Assembly: GCA_026395595.1 (NCBI GenBank)
Contig: JAPLYL010000008.1
Span: 56,417-120,416, forward strand
Length of the DNA stretch: 64,000 bases
Origin: Candidatus Parcubacteria bacterium
GTDB lineage: Bacteria; Patescibacteriota; Minisyncoccia; Phycocordibacterales; CAIJYI01
Direction of reading: 5' to 3'
Shown here: piece after piece, positions 6,097 to 57,264 of the stretch
Layout of the letters: every line of letters begins with the position of its first letter
How positions within the stretch are numbered: position 1 is the first letter of the stretch
Made by a program: the position numbers and the translations under genes
The notes under the pieces: generated by a model
What the model was told of the DNA's origin: nothing
The model's database searches: none
The model's input: the letters and a program-made list of their open reading frames with translations, nothing else

Positions 6097-6140
6097 TTTT
6101 ATTATTTACTTGTTCTTTTGTCGCTCTTTATTCCCCTTGC

Positions 6141-6707: not shown

Positions 6708-6727
6708 GAAAATTTATTTTTTAAAGA

Positions 6728-7333: not shown

Positions 7334-7375
7334 GTTGCAATGTTAAAATTTAAAATACAAATTAGTTGATACGTT

Positions 7376-11432: not shown

Positions 11433-11521
11433 CGGAGAGGTGGGTGAGCACGGTCGAAACCACCACACTGCTAACGTGGCAGGGGGTAAAACCCCTCGAG
11501 GGTTCGAATCCCTCCCTCTCC
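11433..11521 (+). tRNA. tRNA-Ser (anticodon GCU), class II with long variable arm
   Basis: Acceptor GGAGAGG/CCTCTCC with discriminator G. D stem GGT/ACC. Anticodon loop CTGCTAA. Variable arm GGGGGTAAAACCCC. T arm GAGGG-TTCGAAT-CCCTC. Confidence 0.85.
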
Positions 11522-11533
11522 GCAGTAAGTTTT

Positions 11534-11556
11534 TAGTATCGGAAGACCCGAGTGCC
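11534..11556. repeat. 23-bp direct repeat (copy 1) agtatcggaagacccgagtgcct, 13 bp after tRNA-Ser; putative island junction
   Basis: An exact second copy lies at 29682..29704. It contains the RACCCGAGTR core, which occurs at least 7 times in the window. It is embedded in a partial palindrome aagaccc...gggtctt. Confidence 0.7.
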
Positions 11557-11592
11557 TTGATATTCAAGGGTCTTTTGAATCACTGGAATCTC

Positions 11593-11628
11593 AAAAAGTT
11601 CGAACCTTTATGGGGTTCGAACTTTTTG
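11593..11628 (-). terminator. Terminator hairpin after the 1098-aa helicase gene
   Basis: Perfect palindrome aaaaagttcgaacc-tttatgg-ggttcgaacttttt. Confidence 0.6.
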
Positions 11629-11641
11629 TTACTTCGGACTA

Positions 11642-14938: not shown

Positions 14939-15002
14939 TTTTGGGTGACGTGAGATAAGATTTAGATTTCATCACCACCACATTTTATCACTTTTGCAAG
15001 AT

Positions 15003-16328
15003 CTACGCTATTGTCACCACCCCCTTCGTAACTTTAATTTTTGACTTAAAACACCCCATCAATTCTCTCTTCTCTTCGTTCGTCCCTTCTCGGAGAATAT
15101 ATTGGGCGTACGTTTTTGAATCTATTTCCTTGTAGGTTTCTTTTGGGTTTGTCATTCCGAGCACCTTTCTTTGAAATTTGTTCATTCGTTTTAATTCCTC
15201 ATCAAATTTATGTTTGATGCCGAGATTATTGAAGTCTATTTGATCCAGTACTTTTAAAAGTTGTTCAACTAATTCTTCTTCTCGAAGGTACTGACATTTG
15301 CAGTGCCTGTCTTTTGACCTTCCGCATCCATAGTAAATGTATTTTGCGGTCGTTCCATCTTTGAGTACTTTATATTTCTCTTCGGCTGAAATTCCTGATC
15401 CACACAATCCACAGACCATAAGTTTTGTAAAAGCGAATTCTTTGCTTTGTCGATGAATATCATCTCGTTTCAACTGTTCTTGAACTTTATCAAAAAGTTC
15501 TTTTTCAATGATCGGTTCATGTTTTCCGGTATACCAGTTTCCGGACTTTTTCGGGTATTCAAAAACTCCGTAATAAAACGGATTCGATAATGCCCGGTAA
15601 ATATTTCCAAGAGCGACATTATGATTTCCTACCGATTTAAAATTGAGTTCAAATTTTAACCATTGATGAATTTTTCGCCCCGACCATTTTTCATAAGCGA
15701 CTTTTTCATACATTTTTTTAACAATAGGAGCCCTGTCTGGATCTATGGTAACTTGGCATTTTCTATCAATTCTTTTTTCGTTCAAATATCCAAGCGGAGC
15801 GATTCCCGGCCACAGCCCCATTTCAACCCTCGTCCGAAGCCCGCGCTTTACGTTTATTCCGCGATTGTCATTTTCAAGCTTTGCCTGAGATCCAAGAATC
15901 ATCAACAAGAATTTTTCGTTTGGATTATTCCGGAAGCTTTGGCTGAATGTTCGAATCTCTACCAGTTTTCCTGCATCCATCAAGTCTACGATTTTTCCGA
16001 GATCTCCCGCATTACGACTGATACGATCCGGCGCCCATGTCAGAATCCCAGTAAACTTCCCGGCACGTAATTCTTCAACAATCTCATTAAATACAGGCCG
16101 TTGTCCAGTTTCCTTCGCCGAGTGCGATTCGCGCTTCATTGTTACGACCTCTAACCCTTCCCGATCCGCCAGTTGGAGCATTTCCTTAATCTGGCTGTCT
16201 ATTGAAAGCACCTGTCTTTCCTCTGATTCGGTACTCTTTCTCGCATAAAGGCAGTATTTTACCGCCGTTGGAACCTCTATTTTAGCCCTGGTTCCCGCTG
16301 GCATTTGCATTGTTTCCATATGTCTCAT
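15003..16328 (-). CDS. Large serine recombinase (resolvase catalytic domain + recombinase domain + zinc ribbon)
   Basis: YARKSTESEERQ...SIDSQ catalytic Ser region. LTWAPDRISRN. GLWPGIAPLGY recombinase domain. CGLCGSG...YYGCG zinc ribbon. Confidence 0.9.
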   Translation of the reverse strand: MRHMETMQMPAGTRAKIEVPTAVKYCLYARKSTESEERQVLSIDSQIKEMLQLADREGLEVVTMKRESHSAKETGQRPVFNEIVEELRAGKFTGILTWAPDRISRNAGDLGKIVDLMDAGKLVEIRTFSQSFRNNPNEKFLLMILGSQAKLENDNRGINVKRGLRTRVEMGLWPGIAPLGYLNEKRIDRKCQVTIDPDRAPIVKKMYEKVAYEKWSGRKIHQWLKFELNFKSVGNHNVALGNIYRALSNPFYYGVFEYPKKSGNWYTGKHEPIIEKELFDKVQEQLKRDDIHRQSKEFAFTKLMVCGLCGSGISAEEKYKVLKDGTTAKYIYYGCGRSKDRHCKCQYLREEELVEQLLKVLDQIDFNNLGIKHKFDEELKRMNKFQRKVLGMTNPKETYKEIDSKTYAQYILREGTNEEKRELMGCFKSKIKVTKGVVTIA

Positions 16329-16447
16329 TAATGACGCAACCCTCCTAAGGAGTCCAGAGCGACCCGAGTAGGTAACTTTTGCACAAAATATCCGTTTTAC
16401 TTTAATGAAAATTAAGTGTAAACTTATGTTAAGTTAACACTTTTGCT

Positions 16448-16633
16448 ATGACTACATCAAACACGGGAGATATCATTACGCTTAAGGAGGCATGCGAACT
16501 GCTGAACTGTCATCCGAATACCCTGCGAAAATGGGATAACTCCGGTTTCTTGAAAGCGATCCGTTTTGGTGCACGGCGCGACCGGCGGTATCATCGTGCC
16601 GATATTGAGAAATTAATTTCCCAAAAAACATAA
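16448..16633 (+). CDS. Small HTH DNA-binding protein (excisionase/MerR-like HTH_17); candidate RDF or controller
   Basis: ITLKEACELLNCHPNTLRKWDNSG helix-turn-helix. Length is 61 aa. It is the first gene of the MTase operon and lies next to the recombinase. Confidence 0.6.
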   Translation: MTTSNTGDIITLKEACELLNCHPNTLRKWDNSGFLKAIRFGARRDRRYHRADIEKLISQKT

Positions 16634-16635
16634 TT

Positions 16636-17751
16636 ATGAAAGATAAAGTTTCAAACGCCAGCCTTCATGGGGCAAAAAAAGCAAAGAAAGATGAGTTTTA
16701 TACTCAGCTTGTTGATATTGAAAAAGAATTGAAACATTATAAAGATCAGTTTCGTGGCAAGGTGGTATATTGCAACTGTGATGATCCATTTGAAAGTAAT
16801 TTTTTTAAGTATTTTGCCGCTAATTTCAATGCTCTCGGGTTGAAAAAACTTATCGCCACGAGTTACAAGCCATCCCCCATAGCCAATACACAACTGGGAC
16901 TATTTGGCGTAGATAAAGTACTTGCTTCACCAAAAGGACGCCCCAAAGTAACCGCTAACAAATTTATTATCAATGAGGTTAGTGACATAGACGGCGACGG
17001 TGCATTTGATTTACGTGACGTTGCCGAGCAACTTAAGGCTAATAAAAACAATGAGTGGGCCCCATTAGAAGATGAAGGAGATTTTAGAAGTAAAGAAAGC
17101 ATAGAACTGCTAAAGCAGGCTGATATTGTCGTAACTAACCCGCCATTTTCGTTATTTCGGGAATATATTGCACAGATTGTAGAATACGACAAAAAGTTTT
17201 TAATTATCGGCAATATAAATGCGGTTACTTATCAGGAATGTTTTAGACTTGTTCAAAATGATAGAATGTGGCTCGGGGCAAGTATTCATAGCGGTGATCG
17301 TGAATTTCGCGTTCCGAATGATTACCCGCTTGAAGCCGCGGGTTGTAGAGTGGACGAGAGCGGTAATAAATATATCCGCGTCAAAGGTGTCCGTTGGTTT
17401 ACGAATTTGGATTATAAAGAACGTCATGAAGATTTAGTATTGTACAAAAAATACACACCAGAAGAGTATCCTTTATACGACAATTATAGTGCAATTAATG
17501 TTGATAAGACGGCCGATATTCCAATGAGTTACGTTGGGGAGATGGGTGTTCCGATTACATTTCTTGATAAATACAATCCTGATCAATTTAAAATTGTAGG
17601 TGCTCTAATATCTGGCCCACTTGGGCATGAATTGGGAGCAACTAAAACGCAACAGATTAGACCGAACGGAAAGACAACATTGGAATACGGACCAATTATC
17701 AACAAAAAAGGATATTATGGAAGAATTGTTATTAAAAACAAGAAAATATGA
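16636..17751 (+). CDS. N6-adenine DNA methyltransferase (NPPF motif; EcoRI-methylase-family-like)
   Basis: Motif IV VVTNPPF and an upstream CNCDDPFESNFF motif I-like region. The stop overlaps the next gene's start (ATGA). Confidence 0.65.
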   Translation: MKDKVSNASLHGAKKAKKDEFYTQLVDIEKELKHYKDQFRGKVVYCNCDDPFESNFFKYFAANFNALGLKKLIATSYKPSPIANTQLGLFGVDKVLASPKGRPKVTANKFIINEVSDIDGDGAFDLRDVAEQLKANKNNEWAPLEDEGDFRSKESIELLKQADIVVTNPPFSLFREYIAQIVEYDKKFLIIGNINAVTYQECFRLVQNDRMWLGASIHSGDREFRVPNDYPLEAAGCRVDESGNKYIRVKGVRWFTNLDYKERHEDLVLYKKYTPEEYPLYDNYSAINVDKTADIPMSYVGEMGVPITFLDKYNPDQFKIVGALISGPLGHELGATKTQQIRPNGKTTLEYGPIINKKGYYGRIVIKNKKI

Positions 17752-18854
17752 AAATTGAACTAAACAGAATTAAAATACGCGAAGTAATAGAAGAATACAA
17801 AGACAGCGCCGAGGAGGGTGTTGTGGCTTACGGTGGCAAACTTGATGTTCGTCCAAAATATCAGCGTGAGTTCGTCTACAAAGACAAGCAGCGAGATGCG
17901 GTTCTTGATACTATCAAAAAAGGATTCCCACTCAACGTCTTGTACTGGATGGTGCGTGAAGATGGCGGTTATGAACTACTCGATGGACAACAGCGAACGA
18001 TTAGCATTGGTCAGTATATCAGCGGTGACTTTTCGCTAGATGACCGTTATTTTCACAATCTCACAAAAGAAGAACAAGAGCAGATATTGAATTACGAATT
18101 GATGATTTATTTCTGCGAAGGTACAGATAAAGAAAGACTGGGCTGGTTCAAAACTATCAATATCGCGGGTGAAAAATTAACAGATCAGGAATTACGCAAC
18201 GCCGTTTACACTGGCCCGTGGCTTTCTGACGCAAAACTAAAATTCAGTAAATCAAATTGCGCCGGATACCTTTTGGCAAATGACGGTGGCACATTACTCA
18301 CCGGTTCGCCGATCCGGCAAGAATATCTGGAAACCGCACTTTCTTGGATCAATGATGACGAAGTGGCGGGCTATATGGCAAAACACCAGCACGACAAAAA
18401 CGCAAATGAATTGTGGGAGTATTTCCAAAATGTCATTGCTTGGGTACGAAAAACATTCACAAACTATCGCAAAGAAATGGCTCATGTAAACTGGGGCGAA
18501 TTGTACAACGAATTTAAAGATAAGAAGTTGGATTCAAAAAAGTTGGAAGCTGAAATCTTTAAATTGATGCAAGACGAGGACGTAACGAAAAAATCCGGTA
18601 TCTATCCTTATGTTCTCACAAAGCAAGAAAAACATCTTTCCATACGTGCATTCAACGATAAAATGAAACGCGAAGCATACGAGCGACAGGAAGGAATTTG
18701 TCCGCATTGCAAAGGAGAGAATAAGAAAAAGAAATGGGAAATTGAAGAAATGGAAGCCGATCACGTCACCCCATGGCACGAAGGTGGTAAAACGACCGCG
18801 GAAAATTGTCAGATGTTGTGTAAAGAAGATAATCGACGGAAATCGGGGAAATAA
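17748..18854 (+). CDS. DUF262 (ParB/Srx-like DGQQR NTPase) fused to C-terminal HNH endonuclease; GmrSD/BrxU-like
   Basis: DGQQRT motif in the N-terminal domain. C-terminal CPHCKG...ADHVTPWHEGG...NCQMLCKEDNRRK is the HNH signature. Translationally coupled to the MTase. Confidence 0.75.
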   Translation: MKIELNRIKIREVIEEYKDSAEEGVVAYGGKLDVRPKYQREFVYKDKQRDAVLDTIKKGFPLNVLYWMVREDGGYELLDGQQRTISIGQYISGDFSLDDRYFHNLTKEEQEQILNYELMIYFCEGTDKERLGWFKTINIAGEKLTDQELRNAVYTGPWLSDAKLKFSKSNCAGYLLANDGGTLLTGSPIRQEYLETALSWINDDEVAGYMAKHQHDKNANELWEYFQNVIAWVRKTFTNYRKEMAHVNWGELYNEFKDKKLDSKKLEAEIFKLMQDEDVTKKSGIYPYVLTKQEKHLSIRAFNDKMKREAYERQEGICPHCKGENKKKKWEIEEMEADHVTPWHEGGKTTAENCQMLCKEDNRRKSGK

Positions 18855-18857
18855 GCC

Positions 18858-21059
18858 ATGATTAATAAAATTCTAAAAATCGAAGGACTAGGAAAGTTTA
18901 AGAAGTTTTCCAATACAGGAAACGACGATTTGAAATTCTTGAAATACACTGTTATTTTCGGTTACAACACATACGGAAAAAGTACTCTGACAACCATTTT
19001 TAGATCTCTTAAAGATTCCGATCAAAAACGCCTGAATGGAAAGAAAAGTTTTGGATTCATTGGAAATCTTGCCATCGATATATTGGATGAGACTGGTCAA
19101 CACCTAACACTTGCAAACGGCAAATGGAGCAATCCTAATATAGCTATTTTTGATAATTATTTCACCCATAGCTCTGTTTTTGTTGGAGATGAAATAGGTC
19201 ACAAACACAAGTCATCTTTGTATGGAGTTTTTGTCGGGGAGGATATCAGACAACAAATTTCTAAGTTAAAAGAACTGCGGGGTGAGCAAGATGCCTTAGA
19301 AAAAGAGCGTGACAAAATTAAGTCTGAATACACAAAAGGGTATCTTGGAACTTTCGATGCCTTTCTTGGAAAGGAAGCGGTTGATGGAGTTGAAGAGAAA
19401 AAAGAAACTAAAAAGAAAGAAATTCAAAGGATAAAGAACTCCGTTTCGCTTAAACAACTTATTGCGAGCTCTCCATTTGCAAGTAAGTTCGAGAAATTTT
19501 CGGCATCAATGCAAAAAACACTTGATACCTCAGCTGAAACGAATATCGAAAATCATGTAAAATCTCATTGGAAAGATGTTACAGCCTCCAAAAATTTTCT
19601 GGCCGCAGGCGTTGATTTATTGAAAGACGGTACGAACACTTGTGTTTTCTGTGGGCAGGGCCTCACGCCCGTGGTAAATCTTATCAAAGACTTCAAAAAT
19701 GTTTTTGGGGCTACCTACAAAGAAACACAGCAGGAAATAGAAAAAATTGGCGAGGCGTTCTTGCGATTTGATGTAGAAGCTGAAATGGCAAAATTCACTC
19801 CGCTCGGGGTTATCTGCGAAGAAATATACAACAAGGATGTTTTGTTAAAAAATAAAAATATCCTCGACGAAGATGTTCGCAAAAAACTTAAGAATTTAAA
19901 TTACGCAATTGATGTTACTTCAGCTATAAGCCCCTTCAAATCTTTTGTTGCGGAAATAGTAAAATTACATCCAACTTTTGAGATGCTTAAGACTCAGGAG
20001 TTTTCTACTATAAAACAAACCGCATTGGAAAACGAACTGAAACAATTAGAACTCGCACAATATCGCCACGGGGAGGAAGGTGTCGCTCTTGCTCAAAAAT
20101 TTACCAAGGCCATTATAGCCGTTGAAACCAAAAAAACAGAAATCGATACTCTACGAAAAAAGATTGACGAAGCAACCAAAGATACTATTGGAAAAAACCA
20201 GAAGCAAGTTAATACAATACTTACGGATGTATTAAAGGCGGATTTCACAATCCAAAAAATGAGCGGTCAATCAAATTTAACCAGAGCTAATGCTCACTCT
20301 ATAGATTATGAATTCGTTATAAACGAAAATATCGTTCCCATATCCAATAAACACTTACAGACTGATGAGGAGCCATTAGACAAACCATATTTCGGAAATA
20401 CACTTAGCGATAGTGATAGAAGATTGCTCGCACTCGCGTTCTTCATTGCCAGCTTGCAAACGGATAGTAATCTGAAAGACAAGATAATTGTTTTAGATGA
20501 TCCATTTTCTAGCTTTGATTCAAATAGAAAAGATTATTTGGCGAGAATGATTATTGATATCCAGAACGAGAAAAAGGAACGACCGGGACAAATAATCGTT
20601 ATGACACACGACGATGGGTTTCTTGGTCGACTCCAATCAAAATTACCGTCATCTGACACGAAAGTACTTAAGATTAAAAACTCCGTTGCCGATGGCTCAG
20701 TTTTAGACAAATGTGATGTTGATGAAATTATCGAGGAAGAATATTTCAAAAACATAAAGCACATCAAAGAGGCAGCAGATAAAACAAGGGATGTAGATAG
20801 TGCCCTGAAACGGGTTCGTCCATGTCTTGAGCGAGTTTTACGACATAAGTACTATTTTTGTCTTGATAAAGAAACACTTGAGAGCGGAAGCATAACCTCT
20901 TATCTTGAAAAAATTGATAAAAAGTGCGTGATAAAAGATGAAATACTGAAAAGTGGTTGGCACGAACACATGCACGATGAACACGAGATTATGAAATTAT
21001 TGGAGCCGGAAAAAGTTCAAAAATTGAAGGATTTTCTTGTTCTCCTTGAAAAAATATAG
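18858..21059 (+). CDS. Rad50/SMC-like ABC ATPase with coiled-coil insert carrying a CxxC zinc-hook motif; PrrC/RloC-like or Septu PtuA-like candidate
   Basis: Walker A GYNTYGKST near the N-terminus. About 450-aa coiled-coil region containing CVFCGQGLT (compare Rad50 hook CPVCGR). Walker B IIVLDDPFSSFD, H-loop VMTHD, and an about 170-aa C-terminal tail (RPCLERVLRH...WHEHMHDEH). Confidence 0.65.
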   Translation: MINKILKIEGLGKFKKFSNTGNDDLKFLKYTVIFGYNTYGKSTLTTIFRSLKDSDQKRLNGKKSFGFIGNLAIDILDETGQHLTLANGKWSNPNIAIFDNYFTHSSVFVGDEIGHKHKSSLYGVFVGEDIRQQISKLKELRGEQDALEKERDKIKSEYTKGYLGTFDAFLGKEAVDGVEEKKETKKKEIQRIKNSVSLKQLIASSPFASKFEKFSASMQKTLDTSAETNIENHVKSHWKDVTASKNFLAAGVDLLKDGTNTCVFCGQGLTPVVNLIKDFKNVFGATYKETQQEIEKIGEAFLRFDVEAEMAKFTPLGVICEEIYNKDVLLKNKNILDEDVRKKLKNLNYAIDVTSAISPFKSFVAEIVKLHPTFEMLKTQEFSTIKQTALENELKQLELAQYRHGEEGVALAQKFTKAIIAVETKKTEIDTLRKKIDEATKDTIGKNQKQVNTILTDVLKADFTIQKMSGQSNLTRANAHSIDYEFVINENIVPISNKHLQTDEEPLDKPYFGNTLSDSDRRLLALAFFIASLQTDSNLKDKIIVLDDPFSSFDSNRKDYLARMIIDIQNEKKERPGQIIVMTHDDGFLGRLQSKLPSSDTKVLKIKNSVADGSVLDKCDVDEIIEEEYFKNIKHIKEAADKTRDVDSALKRVRPCLERVLRHKYYFCLDKETLESGSITSYLEKIDKKCVIKDEILKSGWHEHMHDEHEIMKLLEPEKVQKLKDFLVLLEKI

Positions 21060-21127
21060 GGCTGTAAGTGGTAATAGGTGAATCAAACAAAAAGGAACTC
21101 ATTAAGTTACTTTGTCTTCGTTGAAAC

Positions 21128-21140
21128 GGGGGGGGGGGGG
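21128..21140. repeat. Homopolymeric G13 tract in convergent intergenic region
   Basis: 13 consecutive G in an AT-rich genome. Possible slipped-strand site or assembly artefact. Confidence 0.6.
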
Positions 21141-21175
21141 CGAATATCGTGGAAAATTATGCATTGAAAATTGTC

Positions 21176-24040
21176 TTAGGGACACGCCAAACATGCTTTT
21201 GCAAGATCTTCAAGCTCTTTGAAGATTGTTTCCGCTTCTACTCGCTCAGGAGTTACCCCTTCAGGTAAGGAGTTTATAAATATTGGAGAATCCAACAACT
21301 GATCCTCAAGCATTACTGCAATTCCAACATCGGTTCTTTTCCTAATAAGTCTTCCGAAGCCCTGCTTAAAAAGCATTACGGCGAGTGGCTGATAGTAGTT
21401 TTTGAAACCATCTAACCTCTTGTTGTCCAATTCCTTACAACGAGCCTGTATAATGGGAAGGTTTGGGTTTCTATAGGGCGTTTTGTAGATAAAAAGAGAT
21501 CTTAGAGAATTACCTGGGACATCAACCCCCTGCCATAAAGTTTCTGTACCGATCAACACTGAATTTGTGTCACTGGAAAAATCTCTGATTACAGAAGTAC
21601 AAGATTGCCCCCTCGATTGTTTCAGTAGCCAAAGATTCTTTTTTGATAATGGACGAACCAGTTTTTCATAAATCTTGTTTACCTGGTCAAAACTCGTACA
21701 GAGAATAAGTGCCCCTCCGTTACTTGCGATAATCGCTTTTTCTAAAAAATCAACACTTTCGTTAAAATGACGGTCGCCCTTCATTGTCTTGAACGAAATG
21801 CCTTTCGGAAGGAAAAATTTGGCTTGTTTATCGTAATCAAATGAAGAGGAAAAGATGTACCCTTTTACGTTTCCTTTTTCTATAAGTCCCAACCCGCAGC
21901 GACTCGAAAAAAAGTTAAATTTTTTATCAATTGTTAGTGTCGCGGATGTCAGTACCACAGAGGAATAATTTTGATAGACTTTTTCGTTCAATTCTTTAGC
22001 GACAGACAGTAAAGATCCTTTTATCTCAACGCCCGAGTTGGTTCTTTCTAAGTATTTAATATATGCGGGGCTGGTGTTTATAAAAACAATGACTGTATCA
22101 ATTATTTGTTTTACCGTACGTATACGGATAGTTAATATTTTTTGTTGTTGCTCGTTCTTTGTTTCTTTTGCAAAAACTTCCATTATACTTTGGATACTTG
22201 CGAGACGGTCTCGAATCTGAATCAAAATACCCTGAAGAGCAGTTAATCCATCCTTGTTCATTTCTGAAAAAAGACTGTACTGAGAGTAACCTTTGTCGTT
22301 CGGTTTTGAAACAAGTTTTGGCGTAATCTCGTCAAACAAAGAGGTAATATCAAGATTAAGATTGGATTCTACCTCAAAAAAAGAATCCGACAAAGACGAC
22401 AACCTATTCTCATTTTTTTGTTTTGCGATATTTTCTATTATGTTAGCAACGCCTTTCCTTTTTCCTTTTCCAAACAAATGTTGCTCAAGTAAAATAAAAC
22501 GATCTTTAGAGAGAATTTGTTCCCATGCGGAAGTGGCATCTTCTTCAAGGTGATGAGCTTCGTCAAATACTATGTATTTTGCTTCTCCAGGAAATACGGT
22601 GTGTGAAAAACTAACGGCATGTTTTTGTGCGGAATTTTCTTCATCAACAAAATCGTTTTCTTTTTCTTCGGCTGGAACAATCCCAGACAACATAATCGCG
22701 TGATTCACAACCACAAGGTCTGCGTCTCTTGCGCGAAGTTTTGCTTTTGCGAGAAAACACTTTCCCTCACCAAACAAATCGCAAACTCCTTGTGTGCAAA
22801 GCTCGTCAGTATTGCATACATCGTGTTCGATCTTCTTTGGCATTCGTTCTGTAAGCCAATAAGGTAGTTCTCCCCAGTCTCCACGTGTAGTCTCTAAAAC
22901 CCAAGAAGAAAGAAGAATTCCTGATAGCGGGCGAGTAAACCTAATTCCATCTCTTTTGAATTCATATAAAGAACGCTGTGTACCTTCTGCTATTATTTCC
23001 TCTATGAATTCACTAAATTTTGATAAACAAACATAATTCTTTTTTCCCTTCAAGACGGCAACGTGTAATTCTTTTCCCATTAGTTCACATAGGTGGGGAA
23101 TTTCTTTAAATGCGAGCTGGTCTTGCAGAGCTTTTGTATGGGTTGAAATTATAACTGGTATATTATTTTCAAGCGCAAAAAGGACGGAAGGGGCTAAATA
23201 TGCTTTTGATTTTCCCGTTCCTGTACCGGCTTCAATAACCGCGTGTTTTTTATTATTAAAGGAGAATGCAATTGCCGCAGCCATTTTCTTTTGTTCTGGA
23301 CGAGCCTCCGAATAGTTGCCGGATTTATCAATCGCTGGATCAAAATATTTTTCTACATCCTCTATTTTTATTTCCTTGTTGGCCTTAAACCCAAGAGTGT
23401 TTTGCCCCACGGGTTTTCTATATGACTGAAACGGTTCGACTAAATGTGAAATATCTATGATATCCTCTGACCTAGCAGGTAGAAAATCTTTCCACCACCA
23501 ATTTACTCGTTCAGACAAGTAACGAAGCGCTGATCTGTGCTTTAACGGTTTTCTTACATATAGTGCTTGTAGGTTTTTTATAATCTCAAATTCACTTTCG
23601 CAATCCTGAAGAGCGCGATGCCTGACCGATTCTAATTTGAAATATTCTGAAAGTGCTGTAGTCGAATGCCCAAATGGATTTGTCGGCAAGATAAAAAATG
23701 CGAATTCAAGAGAATCTTGCTTGTCATCGAATTTAAGACCCTCTCGTTCCAGTATCGGAAAATCGAAAGAAAATCCATTATGAGAAACTACGGTATATCC
23801 TTTAATAAATTCTCTTGTTTGTTTAATTACTTCTTCAATTGTTGGTGCGTTGCAAACATCTTTTTCTGTAATTCCAGTAATTCGTTTTATTGTTTCTGGG
23901 ATTTCATCAGAATAACGCACAAAAGTAGACCATCTTTTTAAAACAGTATTTCCTGAAACCAAAATAGCACCGACTTCAAGGACAGAGGAAAATTCACGAT
24001 CTAAACCCGTTGTTTCAATATCCAGTATGACGTATTTCAT
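21176..24040 (-). CDS. dinG: DinG-family (Rad3-like) helicase with N-terminal DEDD 3'-5' exonuclease domain
   Basis: N-terminal ILDIETTGLD exonuclease motif I. Helicase motif I AGTGTGKS and motif II FDEAHH. Length is 954 aa. Confidence 0.8.
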   Translation of the reverse strand: MKYVILDIETTGLDREFSSVLEVGAILVSGNTVLKRWSTFVRYSDEIPETIKRITGITEKDVCNAPTIEEVIKQTREFIKGYTVVSHNGFSFDFPILEREGLKFDDKQDSLEFAFFILPTNPFGHSTTALSEYFKLESVRHRALQDCESEFEIIKNLQALYVRKPLKHRSALRYLSERVNWWWKDFLPARSEDIIDISHLVEPFQSYRKPVGQNTLGFKANKEIKIEDVEKYFDPAIDKSGNYSEARPEQKKMAAAIAFSFNNKKHAVIEAGTGTGKSKAYLAPSVLFALENNIPVIISTHTKALQDQLAFKEIPHLCELMGKELHVAVLKGKKNYVCLSKFSEFIEEIIAEGTQRSLYEFKRDGIRFTRPLSGILLSSWVLETTRGDWGELPYWLTERMPKKIEHDVCNTDELCTQGVCDLFGEGKCFLAKAKLRARDADLVVVNHAIMLSGIVPAEEKENDFVDEENSAQKHAVSFSHTVFPGEAKYIVFDEAHHLEEDATSAWEQILSKDRFILLEQHLFGKGKRKGVANIIENIAKQKNENRLSSLSDSFFEVESNLNLDITSLFDEITPKLVSKPNDKGYSQYSLFSEMNKDGLTALQGILIQIRDRLASIQSIMEVFAKETKNEQQQKILTIRIRTVKQIIDTVIVFINTSPAYIKYLERTNSGVEIKGSLLSVAKELNEKVYQNYSSVVLTSATLTIDKKFNFFSSRCGLGLIEKGNVKGYIFSSSFDYDKQAKFFLPKGISFKTMKGDRHFNESVDFLEKAIIASNGGALILCTSFDQVNKIYEKLVRPLSKKNLWLLKQSRGQSCTSVIRDFSSDTNSVLIGTETLWQGVDVPGNSLRSLFIYKTPYRNPNLPIIQARCKELDNKRLDGFKNYYQPLAVMLFKQGFGRLIRKRTDVGIAVMLEDQLLDSPIFINSLPEGVTPERVEAETIFKELEDLAKACLACP

Positions 24041-24194
24041 GATAGGTGATTCAAAAGTATCACACTATAAGCAATGCGTCAAAAAAGTTTTCTATTTAGA
24101 TCCGACAAAACTTGTTGATAACCACCCCTTCGCAACCGCTTCTTTTTAAGCTAAGGTACATGGACTAATAGTACTTTTTGCGCTATTATGTTCA

Positions 24195-24426
24195 TTGACA
24201 ACTGAATATTCTGGTCGGAAGACCAGGTACCTAACCCCGAAAGATTTTCTTTCGGATATGGTACGGAATCCCATGGAAGACACTGAACCCTGCGTTCAGC
24301 GACTCTTCCATGGGTCATATCGGGAAACTGGTATGGGACCGAAAGGTCTAGCTGGCGCAGGGTTCAGTGTACCCACTGTTTCTCTCGCCAGCTACTTAAT
24401 AGCTGGTTTTTATTCTCTCTAATAAT
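24195..24426 (+). promoter_or_regulatory. GC-rich highly structured leader ending in terminator hairpin directly upstream of ORF 24427 (riboswitch/attenuator or sRNA candidate, class unknown)
   Basis: Nested palindromes ccatggaaga...tcttccatgg and ctgaaccctgcg...cgcagggttcag. Terminal ccagcta-cttaat-agctgg plus TTTTT sits 10 nt before the ATG. The 75-aa ORF here is not credible. Confidence 0.4.
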
Positions 24427-25173
24427 ATGCCCTTCAAAGAGTACATAAGTAATCACCCCGATCTTGTTCGGGAACGAATTCATAATTTTTTAGGATACGG
24501 AAATCTCTTAGGCGACATTTGGTTCGTCGGAATGGAAGAAGGAGGCAATGAGACGCCAGAAATTCTGCTGTCTCGTTTTCTCGCCACCTCGCAAGGGAAA
24601 ATGTTCGACATTTATGATGATATGCGCGAACATCCGGATCATATGCGTTGGTTCAAAGAAAATGCACCAACGCAGGCGACATATCGAAAACTTATTTATC
24701 TTTTACTGTTCCTCCGTTTGGGAAAAGAGCCTTCCCTCGGAGACATTCGCGAGTATCAAATAAAGAGCTTCGGAAGAAAATCGTCCGATCACGCGGTTTT
24801 GGAACTCATGCCGTTACCGTCAAAAACAATAGACAAAAAAGACTGGAGATATGGTGATCTCGGTATCGAAGAACTTTCTTCTCGGAAAAAGTATCTTACC
24901 GAATTCAAATCCGACCGTGTGGAACTTTTCCGATCGCTCGTTGAAGATCACAAGCCGAAGCTTGTAATCTTTTATTCTCTTGGATATATCAAAGACTGGC
25001 AGAAAATTGCTGAAACGCCTTTTACGGAAATAATTCCGAAAAAACTATTAATCGCGCAAAGAGACGGAACCACCTTCGTTGTGGTTCCGCACTCTGTCGC
25101 GAGAGGACACTCAGATGAATCATGGAGATCTATCGTCGAAGGCATTATATCTGCTCATCCGTTTTCTTCATAG
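24427..25173 (+). CDS. Hypothetical protein (248 aa), no recognisable domain
   Basis: Clean ORF preceded by the structured leader. No motifs recognised. Confidence 0.5.
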   Translation: MPFKEYISNHPDLVRERIHNFLGYGNLLGDIWFVGMEEGGNETPEILLSRFLATSQGKMFDIYDDMREHPDHMRWFKENAPTQATYRKLIYLLLFLRLGKEPSLGDIREYQIKSFGRKSSDHAVLELMPLPSKTIDKKDWRYGDLGIEELSSRKKYLTEFKSDRVELFRSLVEDHKPKLVIFYSLGYIKDWQKIAETPFTEIIPKKLLIAQRDGTTFVVVPHSVARGHSDESWRSIVEGIISAHPFSS

Positions 25174-25540
25174 GTACCGTATAAATATTTAACTTGGTAA
25201 TCGGAGGAACGAACTCGCTATCGGGCGTTTTCTGATTCTTTGTTTGGTAGTCCGGATGGCATCTCTCGAGTTGGAATTTCACGGCTTGCATATTGTTCTG
25301 CTGGATATTTTGGATAAGATGCGTATGAGCAAGATCATTCACGAAGCTTTTTCCAAGGTTGATAGCATTATCCGCCTTAAGAGCAAATGGCCGTTCCTCT
25401 TTCCATGTGTAGAAAGTTTCTCGACTAATACCGGCTCGTTTGCAGGAATACCATATATTTCCCGAATCGCGGAGAAATTCAAGTACTTTTTCTTGCATTC
25501 TATGAGTCCTCTCTTTCACGTCTGATGATTTTTTCGCCAT
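25145..25540 (-). CDS. Phage terminase-small-subunit-like HTH protein
   Basis: SCKRAGISRETFYTWKEE resembles TerS/insertion-element HTH. It is adjacent to the ParB-MTase as in phage packaging modules. The true start may be the internal Met (MQEKV...) abutting the MTase stop. Confidence 0.5.
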   Translation of the reverse strand: MAKKSSDVKERTHRMQEKVLEFLRDSGNIWYSCKRAGISRETFYTWKEERPFALKADNAINLGKSFVNDLAHTHLIQNIQQNNMQAVKFQLERCHPDYQTKNQKTPDSEFVPPITKLNIYTVPMKKTDEQI

Positions 25541-26288
25541 GTCCGGTAAGTTTTTTCCAGCGTTCCACTATCGTCGCGCAATATTCAGGTTCGATTTCGA
25601 CCATAACGCAACGTCTCTTCGTCTGCTCGCACGCAATAAGCGTTGAGCCACTACCGCCGAAGGGATCGTATACGCAATCGTTCACACTGGTGCTGTTAAG
25701 AATGATTTTCCTCAAAATCCCGATCGGTTTCATCGTCGGATGAAGTTTGCTTCGGGACGGTTTCGGAGCGAAGATGACTGATTTGTCTTTTCCTCTTTCG
25801 AATTTATGCGTTCCTTTCCAACCGTAAAGGATGAGTTCGTGCTGGGGAAGGTAATCGAGCCGTCCGATGATTGCTCGGTCTTTTACCCAAATAATCAGCT
25901 GGGATACTTTCACGCCAAGGTCTACGAACGCTTGCCTGAGGGAGAAAATCATCTTGTCACAATTGAAGACGTAAATGCTATTCTTTTTTGAGAGGTGCGG
26001 AAGAATATTTTTCAGCCATCCTTTCGTGAAATCGGCATACTCCTCGTCGCTCATAAGCCCATCGTTTTCAATATCTTTGTCGACAGAAATTTCTTGCATT
26101 CCTCGCTTGCTCGCAACGTAATCAATCGCATACGGCGGATCTGTCAGAATCAAATCGATTGTACCTTTCAGAATCTCGCGGAGAGGAACCGTCTTTGCCT
26201 CTCCGCAAACGAGAATGTGATCGCCGAGAGTGATAATGTTGCCTTTCTTAATCGAGTTGCTTCGCTTTGTGTCCGGTGAATTTTTCAT
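25500..26288 (-). CDS. DNA methyltransferase (N6/N4 beta-class, DPPY motif)
   Basis: ILTDPPY motif IV precedes C-terminal FDPFGGSGSTLIACE motif I, which is the beta-class order. Length is 262 aa. Confidence 0.85.
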   Translation of the reverse strand: MKNSPDTKRSNSIKKGNIITLGDHILVCGEAKTVPLREILKGTIDLILTDPPYAIDYVASKRGMQEISVDKDIENDGLMSDEEYADFTKGWLKNILPHLSKKNSIYVFNCDKMIFSLRQAFVDLGVKVSQLIIWVKDRAIIGRLDYLPQHELILYGWKGTHKFERGKDKSVIFAPKPSRSKLHPTMKPIGILRKIILNSTSVNDCVYDPFGGSGSTLIACEQTKRRCVMVEIEPEYCATIVERWKKLTGHGEKIIRREREDS

Positions 26289-27522
26289 ATCGGTTGATGA
26301 TGAGCTGGCAAAAGATAGGGCTTTTTTCGACCAAGAATGCCCGGCGTTTCATTTGTTCGCAAGCGAGAAGTGTGGAACCGCTTCCTCCGAATAGATCAAG
26401 TACGTTATCGCCGATTTTTGTGCATCGGTTTAGAGGTCGCTCATGAAGAGAAAGCGGTTTCTGTGTCGGATGTTCGTACTCGTCACCCGAAATGCGTTTC
26501 GCGAGCCAGATGTCGATCATGTCGGTGATATCGTCGATTGTTGCGTTTCCGATTCCAATGTCTTTGTTAAGAATCTCCGCGAATTTCGTGTGCTTTGGCG
26601 AAAGATAGGGTTTTCCGGTCGTTCCGTAAACGCAGGGTTCATAAAGCTTAGAGAACGCTACCTGAGGTGTCACATTGATTCCGTTTTTAACCCAGAGTGC
26701 CGTGCGTTTGTATCCGATACCTAGTTCTTCGAAAAGCATTTGAAGCATGCCGACATATTTTTGATCGCAGTACCAGAAGTGGTGGGCGTTTTCCGCACTT
26801 ACGGAAAGGGCGCTTGTCATCGCTTTGCGGAGAAACTCGCGATATTCGACATCGGTCTTCTTGTCGTCGACATCTCCGCCGTAATTCGCCTTTCCGCCAA
26901 GACCTTTATTGTAGTCGAGCGAGATATTGTAAGGCGGATCGGAATAAGCCATATCAATTTTGTGATTTCCGACAAGACGTTTCGCGACCGCTTTGTCCGT
27001 ACTATCTCCGCAGATAAGGAAGTGATCGCCGAGAGAGAAGAGATTTCCTTCTTTGATGTCCGTTTTCTTCGCTTCTTCCATTTCCTTCTTCTCATCGAAA
27101 TCGTCATCTTCAATTTCGAGAACATCGTCCCAAATGTTCGAAAGGTCGGTATCGTCAAAGCCGATGTCGAGAAGAAATTCAGTATCGAACGCTTTCAGTA
27201 GGTCGTAATCCCACGAGCCGGTGTTCTTGTTGCTTCGGAGAAGGTACTCTTCACATTCCTTCGTCGTGAGCTTCCGATTCGGAACGCGGACGTCGATTTC
27301 TTCTTTTCCGCGACCGAGTGCTTGCATAATTCGGAGGCGGGCGTGTCCCGCCAAAATGCCGTTGTCTGTATTGATGGCCGGGATTTCGACCAAGTTATAT
27401 CTATTAATACTTGTTTCGAGGTCTTTCCGCTCTTTATCGGAAATCTTCCTCGGATTCTTGGCGTGCGGGATGAGATCATCGATCTTTCTCGTTTCCGTAC
27501 TCCAGACTAATGCTTTTTGCAT
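26248..27522 (-). CDS. ParB-like nuclease domain fused to DNA methyltransferase (phage-type orphan MTase)
   Basis: N-terminal ParB/Srx-like region (NPRKISDKE...EIPAIN...GHARL), then SDPPYNI and LDLFGGSGSTLLACE. Confidence 0.85.
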   Translation of the reverse strand: MQKALVWSTETRKIDDLIPHAKNPRKISDKERKDLETSINRYNLVEIPAINTDNGILAGHARLRIMQALGRGKEEIDVRVPNRKLTTKECEEYLLRSNKNTGSWDYDLLKAFDTEFLLDIGFDDTDLSNIWDDVLEIEDDDFDEKKEMEEAKKTDIKEGNLFSLGDHFLICGDSTDKAVAKRLVGNHKIDMAYSDPPYNISLDYNKGLGGKANYGGDVDDKKTDVEYREFLRKAMTSALSVSAENAHHFWYCDQKYVGMLQMLFEELGIGYKRTALWVKNGINVTPQVAFSKLYEPCVYGTTGKPYLSPKHTKFAEILNKDIGIGNATIDDITDMIDIWLAKRISGDEYEHPTQKPLSLHERPLNRCTKIGDNVLDLFGGSGSTLLACEQMKRRAFLVEKSPIFCQLIINRYEKFTGHKAKQLD

Positions 27523-47149: not shown

Positions 47150-47300
47150 TGGCCTAAACCGTTAGCATTTTGCTACGGCATGGCCGATAATCGTTCCACA
47201 CAAAAAACCCGTTATCAGGGCGTGTGGAACGTTGCGTGGGGAAACTCACACAGGGGCTTCGGCCCTCCTGGTAGCGGGTTTTTTGTACCCAAAAAAACAG
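47150..47300 (+). promoter_or_regulatory. GC-rich structured intergenic element with mutually exclusive hairpins (attenuator/riboswitch-like or sRNA)
   Basis: gttccacac...gtgtggaac hairpin competes with gtgtgg...ctcacac. Terminal gggc-ttcg-gccc and cccg...cggg are followed by a T-run. Confidence 0.35.
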
Positions 47301-48918: not shown

Positions 48919-49646
48919 AAGGGGTCAGGTACCTTTGTTTTGCCTTCCTCTTTTTCGTATTGTTGCAAGAAGTCCATGCCTGTTTATCATTTCATTCGTC
49001 CACTCCGGTGTACCAAACGGCTTGCCTCGATTTACCGAATAGCGGACAGATTCTTCCTCTTCGCATGTTTGTGGAAGATTCACAAAAGAAATATAATCCT
49101 TGGGTTCGGCAATCGGCCAAGGAGACAAAAGATCCGTTTGCTTATTTTTCAATCTTTTGTTTAAACTTGAAAAATCCCAATTTTGCGCTTTCGTAACCAA
49201 CTTTGCGCGAAGTGGATTTCTCTCAACATACCGGATCACCGTTAAAAGGTGATCGTCCCCTTCTATCCCAAACGACTTGTATCTTCCCTGATACAAATGC
49301 CCGGTGCCAACAGTTTTGTTTTTTGTATGCCAGCGCTGGGTGTGTGTTAATGTAATCCACTGCATAAATTTCTGAAGGTCTCCGTCGAGATAAGGGTAGA
49401 GAACGAGATGAAAATGATTTGGCATCAAGCAATAGGCAAGGATACGCATTTTGTATTTTTGTTTTGCTTCTTCAAGAATGGTTTCAAACAACTTAAAATC
49501 ATCTTCTTCAAAAAAGATCGGGAGACGTGCGTTCGCGCGATTGATGACGTGATAAATTTCTCCGCCAATATCTACTCGCGGTAATCGTGGCATTTCAAAA
49601 TTATATCATATCGAATTTTTTAATCAAAGGTACCTGACCCTTTTAT
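48917..49646. mobile_element. Compact IS200/IS605-like (HUH Y1 transposase) element bounded by about 19-bp terminal inverted repeats
   Basis: Left aaaaggggtcaggtaccttt and right aaaggtacctgaccctttt are reverse complements apart from one G. They enclose only the transposase gene. Confidence 0.65.
48925..49593 (-). CDS. IS200-like / REP-associated HUH tyrosine transposase
   Basis: HUH motif LMPNHFHLV and an N-terminal YHVINRANAR pattern. Confidence 0.75.
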   Translation of the reverse strand: MPRLPRVDIGGEIYHVINRANARLPIFFEEDDFKLFETILEEAKQKYKMRILAYCLMPNHFHLVLYPYLDGDLQKFMQWITLTHTQRWHTKNKTVGTGHLYQGRYKSFGIEGDDHLLTVIRYVERNPLRAKLVTKAQNWDFSSLNKRLKNKQTDLLSPWPIAEPKDYISFVNLPQTCEEEESVRYSVNRGKPFGTPEWTNEMINRHGLLATIRKRGRQNKGT

Positions 49647-55666: not shown

Positions 55667-55789
55667 GAGATATCTCCTCTTTTTTCAGGGTACAAATTAC
55701 TTTTTTATGATATCATATTTGTTCAATACTGTCAAATCCATTGCGAAAAAACCGAAAATACGCTAAAATTCTCTGCATAACCAAAGTAT

Positions 55790-55828
55790 GCACGCATAGC
55801 TTAATTGGTTAAAGCATTTGGCTTATAA
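55790..55828 (+). pseudogene. 5' tRNA fragment (acceptor + D arm + anticodon stem-loop only)
   Basis: gcacgcatagcttaattggttaaagcatttggcttataa is near-identical to the 5' half of the downstream intact tRNA, then diverges. Confidence 0.6.
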
Positions 55829-55858
55829 TTACAAACGAAGAACAAAATAAAAGAAAAT

Positions 55859-55932
55859 GCACGCATAGCTCAATTGGTTAGAGCATTTGGCTTATATCCA
55901 AAAGGTTCATGGTTCAAGTCCATGTGCGTGCA
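55859..55932 (+). tRNA. tRNA-Ile (anticodon UAU) (74 nt)
   Basis: Acceptor GCACGCA/TGCGTGC with discriminator A. D arm GCTC-AATTGGTTA-GAGC. Anticodon stem TTTGG/CCAAA with loop CTTATAT. T arm CATGG-TTCAAGT-CCATG. Confidence 0.75.
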
Positions 55933-55983
55933 CAACAAAGTGCATTATCTTTTATTTTTTCTGAGTGCTGTAATTATACGAAG

Positions 55984-56023
55984 TATATCCAAAAGGTTCA
56001 TGGTTCAAGTCCATGTGCGCCCA
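55984..56023 (+). pseudogene. 3' tRNA fragment (anticodon loop to acceptor 3' strand)
   Basis: tatatccaaaaggttcatggttcaagtccatgtgcgc matches the intact tRNA up to the acceptor, which then differs. There is no 5' partner. Confidence 0.6.
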
Positions 56024-56067
56024 CATTCAAAACAAAAGCGGCAAAGCCGCTTTTGTTTTTATATTTT

Positions 56068-57264
56068 TTATTTTACATCCGACTCCAATACCCTTTTCAC
56101 CACCTTTCCCCATCGAGCGAGCGGTTCGTGTGTGAGTAGTGCAATGATCTCTTCTTTTTCGTATCCGGCATCCTCCATTTTTCTTACCGCACCTACACCG
56201 ATTGTAAGGGTTTCTTTGTATTCTTGGACAAGCGTTTTTTCTACAACTTCTTTTGTTAGAGCGCGGATATCATCGCTTGATTTTAGCCACAAATACTCCG
56301 CTTTTCTCGGTTCTTCGAGGAAATCATAAATGCCTCCCTCTTCTTTTGGCATGTTCAATTCAACAAGCGCCATGTCTTCGTGCCCGTCCTTGTAGTGTGC
56401 AATCATTTCATCTTTTGCAAAGGCTTCGGCATTTTTCCGGAACTGGCGGAAAAAATTTATGAGTATCTTTTCTTTTTCTTCCATCGTTTCCGCGTCAAGA
56501 AAACTTTGACGAACATTTCTGACGTTGATCGGGTCATTTGGATCAAGCAGGTCTTTATCGAAAAGGCTATTTATTGCATGCTGTTCTTCATGAATAAAAA
56601 TAACGGCGCTTTCTTCTTCTTTCGGATTTCTTCCGATTCCTGAATTGTTTTCAGCCATTACTACCCTACCAATTTCTGGATGAGACACGGAAAAAATATT
56701 TATTGCCTTGCATCCCATCGCTTCCGCTTTTTCCTCTTCGGTAAAATCCCGCTTTTTTCCGTGATGTCTTCTTTGGTTTGAATAAAAGACAGTTAAATAA
56801 TCTTTAAAATCATAACATTTAAAATATAACGATACGGGTCCCGTCACTAATTCCACTTTTCCTTTTGGCGCTTCAAAAAAGAGCTCTTTGTATAAATCAT
56901 TCGTATTCGGAAATTTTTGCCGGATATTTTCAATTCCTTTATACAAAAGACTATATCGGTCAAGAATTTTTGCAATCTCTTTTTTTTGTTGTTTATTCAT
57001 CCCAAACTCTGCGCCGAGTTCAACCGCCATGTCATAGAAATCTTCAATTTTTCCGTTCGGCTTATTACGAATCTCATCAATAAGAATATCCTGCACGCGA
57101 GCCAAACCTACTTGTTGAAAGGCCAGTTTTTCTTTAAATTCAGCAAGCTTCTGCTGTCGTTCTTCTTTTGGAGCTTTCAGAATCTCTCTGACCGCAATCT
57201 CAGGGTCAAAAACTTCCCCATATTTTATCGGTGGCTGTTCCATAACGAATTTTTCTTCTTGCAT
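56068..57264 (-). CDS. Hypothetical protein (398 aa)
   Basis: Long clean ORF. No motif recognised. Confidence 0.5.
   Translation of the reverse strand: MQEEKFVMEQPPIKYGEVFDPEIAVREILKAPKEERQQKLAEFKEKLAFQQVGLARVQDILIDEIRNKPNGKIEDFYDMAVELGAEFGMNKQQKKEIAKILDRYSLLYKGIENIRQKFPNTNDLYKELFFEAPKGKVELVTGPVSLYFKCYDFKDYLTVFYSNQRRHHGKKRDFTEEEKAEAMGCKAINIFSVSHPEIGRVVMAENNSGIGRNPKEEESAVIFIHEEQHAINSLFDKDLLDPNDPINVRNVRQSFLDAETMEEKEKILINFFRQFRKNAEAFAKDEMIAHYKDGHEDMALVELNMPKEEGGIYDFLEEPRKAEYLWLKSSDDIRALTKEVVEKTLVQEYKETLTIGVGAVRKMEDAGYEKEEIIALLTHEPLARWGKVVKRVLESDVK

Follow-up and report, generated by a model that had tools for sequence, protein, structure and literature searches.

Rickettsia palindromic elements (RPEs) are tolerated inside genes, and occur even in frame within protein-coding genes (PMC1779305). 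The element described below resembles both RPEs and MITE-like repeats in being small, non-coding, hairpin-forming selfish DNA of a reduced, host-dependent bacterium, and it likewise has an in-frame copy, in the gene dut. However, RPEs are dispersed in many copies, whereas the present element is concentrated in the anticodon loop of one gene and is low-copy elsewhere; unlike RPEs, it can also carry a complete copy of the gene that it interrupts, and it nests. Among the features by which MITE-like repeats are recognized, it has self-complementary structure and polymorphism, but not many dispersed copies: one copy was found in the 64-kb window, i.e., the whole stretch of 64,000 nt analyzed here.

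Two further classes of mobile DNA share features with this element. In tRNA-targeting integrative elements, as here, the sequence of the invader replaces a displaced part of the tRNA, and the displaced part stays behind as a fragment. Such elements are kilobases long, encode their own integrase, replace the 3′ part only and leave a 3′ repeat only; in contrast, the 156-bp insert at the locus described here brings a whole tRNA and leaves both halves, without a recombinase. The IS200/IS605 elements and their hairpin-only derivatives are comparable in being strand-specific, with subterminal hairpins, a short internal guide, a fixed short target and a fixed orientation. They differ in spreading over many sites that share a target of 4–5 bases, whereas the present element is almost restricted to a single tRNA gene and has no matching transposase that we could find.

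Intervening sequences of tRNA genes form a third point of comparison. The tRNA genes of the Thermoproteales contain several introns per gene, and there is evidence that these introns have moved between tRNA genes (PMC4090602; PMC4390854; summarized in PMC10714607). As in archaeal intron-containing and split tRNA genes, the sequences described here interrupt the anticodon, D and T loops, several per gene. Archaeal introns, however, present a bulge-helix-bulge motif that is cut by EndA, and their exons must form a working tRNA; the present loci have no evident bulge-helix-bulge, contain many broken outer halves (hereafter shells), and always retain an intact inner gene. The group I introns of cyanobacterial tRNA-Leu and Azoarcus tRNA-Ile also occupy an anticodon-loop site in bacteria, where an internal guide forms a helix with the final bases of the exon. 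They are 200 nt or more in length, compared to about 80 nt for the present element, which lacks a group I core, a junction U-G pair and a match in Rfam.

Here we describe nested, 'Russian-doll' tRNA-Ile(UAU) loci in a clade of Parcubacteria. A search of the full-text literature, which omitted most subscription journals, returned no description of nested tRNA genes or of the hairpin element, and such loci are, as far as we found, previously undescribed.

An intact tRNA-Ile(UAU) lies between two tRNA halves

The window derives from the chromosome of an uncultured CPR bacterium (Parcubacteria/Paceibacterota); a 398-aa protein encoded next to the locus is 100% identical to one from a 'Candidatus Parcubacteria' genome bin. 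At positions 55790-56023, a spacer of 31 nt separates a 5′ tRNA piece of 38 nt from an intact tRNA-Ile(UAU), and one of 51 nt separates that gene from a 3′ piece of 40 nt. ARAGORN, which called two tRNAs in the whole window, placed a single intact tRNA-Ile with anticodon TAT at 55859-55933, and the Rfam tRNA model scored it at 75.1 bits (55859-55932) against a cut-off of 29. Both programs confirm the intact gene that an earlier note on this DNA had described from the sequence as lying between a 5′ and a 3′ tRNA fragment.

The 5′ piece (55790-55827) matches positions 1–37 of the intact gene at 36 of 38 bases. Its two mismatches, C13T and G22A, face each other in the D stem, and the pair is thereby retained. 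The 3′ piece (55984-56023) copies the stretch of the gene that starts at anticodon position 34 and ends with the discriminator. As the earlier note had reported, it agrees with the intact gene up to the last acceptor bases: the first 36 bases are exact, and the sole departure is at acceptor positions 70–71 (TGCGTGC to TGCGCCC). Joining of the two halves in silico yielded five of seven acceptor pairs, with C2/C71 and A3/C70 mismatched, which upholds the further claim that the fragments cannot be joined into a valid acceptor stem. Shuffled windows gave no match comparable to either piece. Since the 5′ piece ends and the 3′ piece starts with TATA (anticodon positions 34–37), this tetranucleotide occurs twice, once at each junction.

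The features of the locus, all on the forward strand, are as follows.

55741..55769, + strand: promoter-like site (TTGCGA, 17 nt, TAAAAT) from a consensus scan, upstream of the 5′ fragment and not of the intact tRNA
55790..55827, + strand: putative 5′ half (positions 1–37) of an older split tRNA-Ile(UAU), the outer shell; 36/38 identity, D-stem differences compensatory
55824..55832, + strand: 5′ strand of helix P1, TATAATTAC, i.e., U34 A35 U36 A37 and the first five insert bases; predicted to pair with 55970-55978
55828..55858, + strand: left arm of the hairpin insert, with the P1 and P2 5′ strands; matched by covariance model R1
55859..55932, + strand: intact tRNA-Ile(UAU), the cargo of the insert, in the P2 loop (ARAGORN, Rfam, model alignment)
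55933..55983, + strand: right arm, the 3′ strands of P2 and P1 followed by the P3 remnant CGAAG (predicted fold, model alignment)
55970..55978, + strand: 3′ strand of P1, GTAATTATA, a putative internal 'guide' pairing with the UAUA of the anticodon loop (predicted fold, covariation)
55984..56023, + strand: putative 3′ half (position 34 to discriminator) of the older tRNA-Ile(UAU), with a GGGCGCA-type acceptor strand (TGCGCCC), from sequence comparison
56029..56059, + strand: intrinsic-terminator-like hairpin closing the transcription unit, a stem of 14 pairs and then a T run

In nearly all related loci, the motif TTGCGAAAA...TAAAAT stands ahead of the outermost 5′ piece or of the plain tRNA, and the window 5′ half occupies the site of the plain tRNA of relatives, immediately 3′ of this native promoter. 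The native terminator region follows the window 3′ half, as in L027, L029 and L033; in these three loci, hairpins homologous to the window terminator come after the outermost 3′ piece. With a single promoter-like site ahead of the 5′ half and a single terminator beyond the 3′ half, the locus has the layout of a single transcription unit. Its neighbors are a Rid-family gene and a conserved hypothetical gene, with genes for SecY, ribosomal proteins and RecG close by.

Our preferred reading, to which we assign a probability of about 0.72, is that an older tRNA-Ile(UAU) was split in its anticodon loop by a 156-bp palindromic-element insert carrying a replacement tRNA, and that the whole forms one transcription unit.

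Related loci contain nested insertions

Related loci were collected through a scan for the 3′ half in one genome per species (three loci), a metagenome scan, and contigs retrieved via homologues of the neighboring protein. There were 24 distinct loci, 18 with fragments and 6 plain. The plain loci include L002 and L003; the tRNA-Ile(UAU) gene of L003 is identical to the intact gene of the window and has the same promoter motif ahead of it. The three-part layout of the window is found in L001 with different sequences. There, the halves are mutually complementary (acceptor GGGCGCA/TGCGCCC, anticodon stem UUUGG/CCAAA), and the inner tRNA-Ile(UAU) has an acceptor and an anticodon stem unlike those of the flanking halves.

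Four loci (L008, L011, L014 and L033/L034) are more deeply nested, with the order 5′ half A, 5′ half B, intact C, 3′ half B, 3′ half A, and nests reach three inserts deep. L035 and L039, read by eye, are further multi-fragment loci of less regular order. Each locus tested that spans the whole region contains exactly one intact tRNA-Ile(UAU) according to ARAGORN (by eye in L035 and L039); L004 starts within the tRNA and yields no ARAGORN tRNA. Wherever both halves of a shell persist, the intact tRNA is the innermost copy. L025, L026 and L027 are identical in three independent assemblies, as are L033 and L034 in two, which indicates that the nests are not assembly errors.

The order of events can be read where the same tRNA occurs both intact and split. 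A tRNA beginning GGACGCA is intact and innermost in L027 and L029; in L033, it is split by a window-type cassette, showing that the new cassette went into the intact copy. Together, the loci show that new cassettes enter the innermost intact tRNA, producing 5′ halves, one intact gene and 3′ halves in succession, and that nested repeats swap sequence, yielding chimeric shells. The earlier note had allowed for the three-part arrangement being a processed precursor conserved among relatives. While the arrangement does recur widely, it does so as independent nested insertions, with plain alleles in close relatives, and not as one conserved precursor.

The spacers are the arms of a conserved structured element

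Once the inner tRNA is removed, 17 copies of the element can be aligned (alignment A1). The element spans approximately 75–90 nt without its tRNA, and the window insert is 156 bp long (55828-55983). Helix P1 joins U34 A35 U36 A37, and the five insert bases that follow them, to an internal ...UAUA strand. It is followed by GA-rich internal loops, in which GAGNGAG lies opposite CCGARCGA, and then by P2; P3 is a short hairpin, AUAUC-GYAGCGAAGCGGAG-AUAU, adjoining the 3′ junction. Box C/D or kink-turn, hammerhead, group II domain V and bulge-helix-bulge motifs were considered by eye for the GA-rich loops, and none fits.

The helices are supported by comparison across copies. Pairing is found in 84.3% of helix cells in A1, compared to 69.7% in shuffled alignments (0 of 500 shuffles as high) and 39–56% when the partners are slid. 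P1 is 94.7% paired over the 17 copies, and changes on both sides occur at five of its nine pairs; the variants, read directly from the loci, are AUUAC/GUAAU, AAUAC/GUAUU, AUUUC/GGAAU, AUUGC/GCAAU, AUGAG/CUCAU and AAACC/GGUUU. The predicted fold of the window copy has a z-score of -3.3. The element is a conserved family with covarying helices, and has copies both with and without a tRNA.

The position of the cargo varies between copies. The inner tRNA sits at the tip of P2 in the window, L008, L012, L016, L027 and L033, and at the tip of P3 in L001, L010, L011 and the outer shell of L014; copies without a tRNA, about 75 nt in length, are found in L005, L009, L011, L023, L035 and L039. When run with search filters off, the covariance model of the family detected one copy in the window (55820-55990, 53 bits), aligning the tRNA as an 89-nt insertion in the P2 loop. 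The same alignment has a 12-position gap where other copies have P3, i.e., P3 is deleted in the window copy. No further copies of the element, of the P3 motif or of small hairpin inserts were found in the window. No Rfam family matched the element at the window locus (E up to 10), at nine related loci (E up to 1) or on the viral contig L028.

At tRNA loci, the element has a uniform orientation with respect to the tRNA in at least 25 copies, seven of which are tRNA-less. Such a single orientation, despite the palindromic nature of TATA, implies a strand-specific mechanism. The summed folding energy is -458 kcal/mol for the sense strand and -386 kcal/mol for the antisense strand, and the helices contain 22 G-U versus 19 A-C pairs, a count that does not separate an RNA fold from a DNA fold. 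In 203 kb of related loci, there is one element copy outside tRNA-Ile loci. A 4-base TATA guide is insufficient to explain this near-confinement.

The cassette is more conserved than its genomic surroundings

Comparison with other genomes suggests that the element is mobile. The window cassette is 98.1% identical to that of L014 over 155 nt, with secY at 76.0%, and 89.9% identical to that of L033, with secY at 78.6%; the left arm matches L014 at 31 of 31 bases and L033 at 29 of 31, and the right arm is identical to L014 at 45 of 50 compared bases. The window 3′ half is identical in all 40 bases to the 3′ fragments of both L001 and L014. L031, the closest relative in the set (secY 93.0% identical in nucleotides and 98.6% in amino acids), has a plain gene. 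A non-coding cassette that is more conserved than secY across distant genomes, and is missing from a close one, is a signature of horizontal movement. Judging from these sequence comparisons, the window cassette has moved between genomes, and the three host contexts compared suggest that the inner tRNA moves together with the arms. Other traits are those of palindromic elements, namely orthologous loci that are plain in some genomes and filled in others, and TATA or TAT repeated at the junctions.

Outside tRNA-Ile loci, the only strong hit of the covariance model was an 87-nt tRNA-less copy inside the dUTPase gene dut of L008. This copy is antisense to the gene, in frame and stop-free over 29 codons, giving a protein that reads MSITLK[29 aa]IKRL..., and solved dUTPases align to this protein only from residue 30 onward. 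It is flanked by a 7-nt direct repeat, ATTTTGA, which pairs with the internal GTCAAAAT. The dut copy behaves as a DNA-level palindromic element would.

A search of the window for an insertion enzyme with element-like ends found none, nor was a reverse transcriptase seen among some 50 window proteins. The only HUH-type gene of the window, at 48925-49593, is transposase-like (76.9 bits, cut-off 80) and is flanked by GGGTCAGGTACC inverted repeats. We considered this REP-associated tyrosine transposase as the mobilizing enzyme and rejected it, given that its flanking repeats are unrelated to the element and that the gene is absent from the related loci.

It is possible, if somewhat doubtful, that the window gained an already interrupted allele by homologous recombination after DNA uptake, with the halves or the flanks serving as arms. 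The similarity to L014 spans the halves and the cassette (97.4% over 232 nt) and falls in the flanks, and genes for a ComF-like protein and for a type IV pilus/competence-type cluster are present in the window; together, these observations make homologous replacement a live alternative. The loss of P3 from the window copy would also be compatible with this route, and chimeric shells indicate that recombination among the repeats is active. However, the arms of homology would be merely about 40 bp long, and four differences, acceptor type among them, separate the 5′ half of the window from that of L014. Moreover, this route concerns only the arrival of the window copy, and leaves unexplained the origin of the first nests and the step from L027 to L033.

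Outer shells range from broken to fully complementary

The shells differ widely in preservation. The number of acceptor pairs formed is five of seven in the window, four of seven in L039, and six of seven in L012, L016 and shell A of L033. In L027, inner and outer sequence are mixed in a chimeric 3′ half whose anticodon and T stems are broken. Damage is heavier in the outer than in the inner shells of L008, L011 and L033, and orphan 3′ or 5′ halves are found in L015 and L023. Small GC-rich hairpins, in both orientations, are inserted in the D and T loops of outer shells. Fully complementary shells were found in L001, L014 (shells A and B), L033 (shell B) and L010; like the shell of L001, shell B of L014 departs from its inner tRNA in the acceptor stem. 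Shell A of L014 contains three hairpin inserts and a large element, yet has 0 substitutions in 73 exon bases; in the outer shell of L008, the 3′ half has five changes, all of which still pair as G-U. The outer halves are most likely relics because they are often chimeric or mismatched, that of the window included. Some of them (L014 shell A, L008 outer shell) look better kept than expected of neutral relics.

The identity of the split gene can be traced in the window. Its 3′ half and terminator region match the outermost 3′ ends of L027 and L033, and this match, together with the native promoter, identifies the split gene as the resident one, of the GGGCGCA type. In the 5′ half, the acceptor is that of the inner tRNA (GCACGCA), whereas one D-stem pair is private. 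This combination is most simply explained if a short tract was converted from the inner copy, or if nested 5′ halves recombined in a layout like that of L014.

The well-preserved shells bear on a different account of the loci, in which the spacers belong to a new bacterial class of true introns. Self-cleavage and a ligase, or else a protein, would remove them from the transcript, so that the halves are exons and one transcript gives rise to two or three tRNA-Ile molecules. In a second formulation, a guide-directed mobile RNA/DNA element or intron of CPR bacteria would be processed at the RNA level, with the nested halves again serving as exons. An intron would suit the insertion site, which is at or beside the canonical position 37/38 and always co-oriented with the tRNA though TATA is palindromic, and also the conserved covarying structure, in which P1 holds the 5′ junction in the manner of an intron guide. 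The perfectly complementary shells, the absence of exon substitutions in L014 shell A despite its four inserts, the wobble pairing kept by the changes in L008 and the better folding of the sense strand point in the same direction.

We nevertheless consider the intron account unlikely, and its second formulation equally so. The interrupted gene is never the sole copy (0 of 24 distinct loci), and many shells, such as those of the window and L039 and the chimera in L027, cannot form a valid tRNA. The dut copy runs antisense to the mRNA, and the reading frame continues through it; the hairpins in D and T loops are inserted in both orientations. No ribozyme or intron family of Rfam was matched. Splicing endonuclease and RtcB-type ligase were looked for among the approximately 50 proteins encoded within the ~64-kb window, and neither was found. 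As regards introns of the archaeal type, which have two 3-nt bulges around a 4-bp helix at the junctions, the predicted folds, judged by eye, place the 5′ junction within a continuous 9-bp helix without bulges. We know of no bulge-helix-bulge splicing endonuclease in bacteria.

Discussion

Under the preferred reading, i.e., a resident tRNA-Ile(UAU) split by an insert that carries its replacement, the following sequence of events can be proposed. The split would lie after A37 or, equivalently, would involve a 4-bp duplication of TATA. The element probably chooses its target through pairing of its internal ...UAUA strand with the UAUA of the anticodon loop, on single-stranded nucleic acid, and insertion would most likely take place at the DNA level, by an enzyme acting in trans. 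The replacement copy would make a hit in an essential single-copy gene survivable and would renew the target, and repeated rounds would build the Russian doll. Transcription would then run from the native promoter through the entire unit, with RNase P and 3′-end processing freeing the inner tRNA alone and leaving the outer halves as inert leader and trailer. Gene conversion or recombination between nested repeats may have produced the mismatched halves of the window, in which a 5′ GCACGCA now faces a 3′ half that needs GGGCGCA. The window copy itself is a somewhat degraded example. Rather than transposing into place, it may have come in with DNA taken up by the cell and replaced the homologous allele; having lost P3, it may no longer be mobile.

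The earlier note had seen in the fragments a mark of past integration and excision at this tRNA. The fragments do record an insertion, and that part of the claim stands; the remainder does not, as there is no integrase-driven island and no excision, and the inserted DNA is still present. It is accordingly very improbable that the fragments are att-site footprints of integrase-driven islands or prophages that have since been excised or deleted. Such elements usually betray themselves by partial duplications of the tRNA, and both breakpoints fall within the anticodon loop, where some integrase families are known to cross over. However, no integrase or island lies near: the sole recombinase of the window is at 15003-16328, 40 kb away and beside a tRNA-Ser gene. 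The repeats lie 31 and 51 nt away from the intact gene rather than kilobases away, and a 5′ half remains as well, whereas elements that restore the 3′ end leave none. Nothing has been excised, given that the intact tRNA is cargo of the inserted DNA and the spacers are two arms of one conserved structured element. Neither tRNA half was found in 2.9 million viral contigs, and the relatives carry nests, not islands. No mobile element would be needed if the tRNA had been duplicated locally in tandem and two deletions had followed, or if the arrangement were an assembly artefact from strain variants; tRNA genes do duplicate in tandem, and metagenome assemblers can mis-join repeats. We regard this as extremely improbable because both breakpoints fall on the same four bases, the covarying structure of the spacers is common to loci from different samples and assemblers, and the same cassette occurs in three different host tRNA contexts.

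An unusual strategy for decoding isoleucine, which the earlier note had offered as another meaning of the fragments, finds no support in the related loci. All 24 distinct loci have a tRNA-Ile(UAU), and AUA accounts for 22% of isoleucine codons (17 per 1000 codons) in 23 long open reading frames of the window, a usage that requires an AUA decoder; no TilS was seen among the approximately 50 proteins of the window. On both grounds, the UAU anticodon looks like the normal AUA decoder of the lineage, unconnected with the fragments.

If the shells were spliced after all, the loci would reveal a new bacterial RNA-processing pathway, and the first tRNA splicing system in bacteria other than that of group I introns. 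If processing took place at the RNA level, a tRNA gene would be housed within the intron of another tRNA gene, and each transcript would give several tRNA-Ile(UAU). Independently of these possibilities, the loci offer a natural setting in which to measure how very short repeats undergo gene conversion with one another. They are also a trap in the annotation of CPR genomes, in that tRNA finders report the innermost gene alone. The element itself is an uncharacterised structured element that apparently recognizes an anticodon loop by base pairing. Under the preferred reading, it would represent a route for selfish DNA into an essential single-copy gene without death of the host, namely by bringing along a spare copy of that gene; as each invasion recreates the target, the locus would hold a layered, readable record of successive invasions.

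The Hairpin Element and Further Hairpins at Other Loci

One copy of the hairpin element, the structured family that splits tRNA-Ile(UAU) in the anticodon loop, lies within a protein-coding gene of L008, a related locus compared with the window:

L008 2470–2560, plus strand: hairpin element copy, 87 nt, within dut (2066–2581, minus strand)

The copy follows codon 6 of dut, keeps the reading frame and introduces no stop codons. It is oriented antisense to the dUTPase gene, and the 7-nt direct repeat ATTTTGA is present on both of its sides.

The outer tRNA shell of L008 has also changed. In its 3′ half, TGCGCCC has become TGTGTTT and CCATG has become CCGTG; each of these five transitions retains pairing as G-U, and the anticodon now reads UGU. 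The outer shells of L005, L009, L010, L011, L012, L014, L023, L029, L033, and L035 contain GC-rich hairpin inserts of approximately 25–37 nt, confined to the D or T loops of the disrupted tRNA halves and preceded by TAGC(T/A)C, TGGTTA, or TGGTT(C). Inserts of one class occur in both orientations and share GTAGC...GAAGC with P3, the short hairpin abutting the 3′ junction of the hairpin element.

The P3 motif was also observed on L028, a small viral contig (IMG/VR contig IMGVR_UViG_3300045988_000138):

L028 1400–1560 and 7780–7940, minus strand: P3 motif sites

Here the motif, TATCGTAGCGAAGCGGAGATA, is contained within a larger hairpin of an intergenic repeat. The contig itself has a repeat unit of approximately 6.4 kb. 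An Rfam search of this viral contig matched no family for the motif.

Other Features of the Window

A region resembling a genomic island follows a tRNA-Ser gene (11434–27522, tRNA gene included):

11434–11523: tRNA-Ser(GCU)
15003–16328: large serine recombinase

In addition to the recombinase, the region encodes a helicase, an EcoRI-type methylase, a GmrSD/HNH nuclease, an AAA_13 ATPase, a DinG-like exonuclease-helicase, and two further DNA methylases. It may be a classic tRNA-associated island, situated 40 kb from the tRNA-Ile(UAU) locus.

Four further features were identified:

24228–24349 and 47151–47266, plus strand: LOOT RNA motif (Rfam RF03000), present twice (84 and 68 bits, respectively)
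48925–49593, minus strand: REP-associated tyrosine transposase-like gene (76.9 bits; cut-off, 80)
56068–57264, minus strand: gene for a 398-aa protein, adjoining the tRNA-Ile(UAU) locus
136–9296: type IV pilus/competence-type gene cluster

Within 48922–49640, the transposase-like gene is bracketed by the 12-nt inverted repeat GGGTCAGGTACC, of which no further copies were present in the window. The 398-aa protein matched nothing in Pfam or NCBIfam and is far more divergent than its neighbors, sharing 37–77% amino acid identity with relatives whose SecY proteins are 84–99% identical. The pilus/competence-type cluster, which bears on DNA uptake, comprises a pilin, a PilC-like protein, two PilB/PilT-like ATPases, PilM, and a ComF-like phosphoribosyltransferase.
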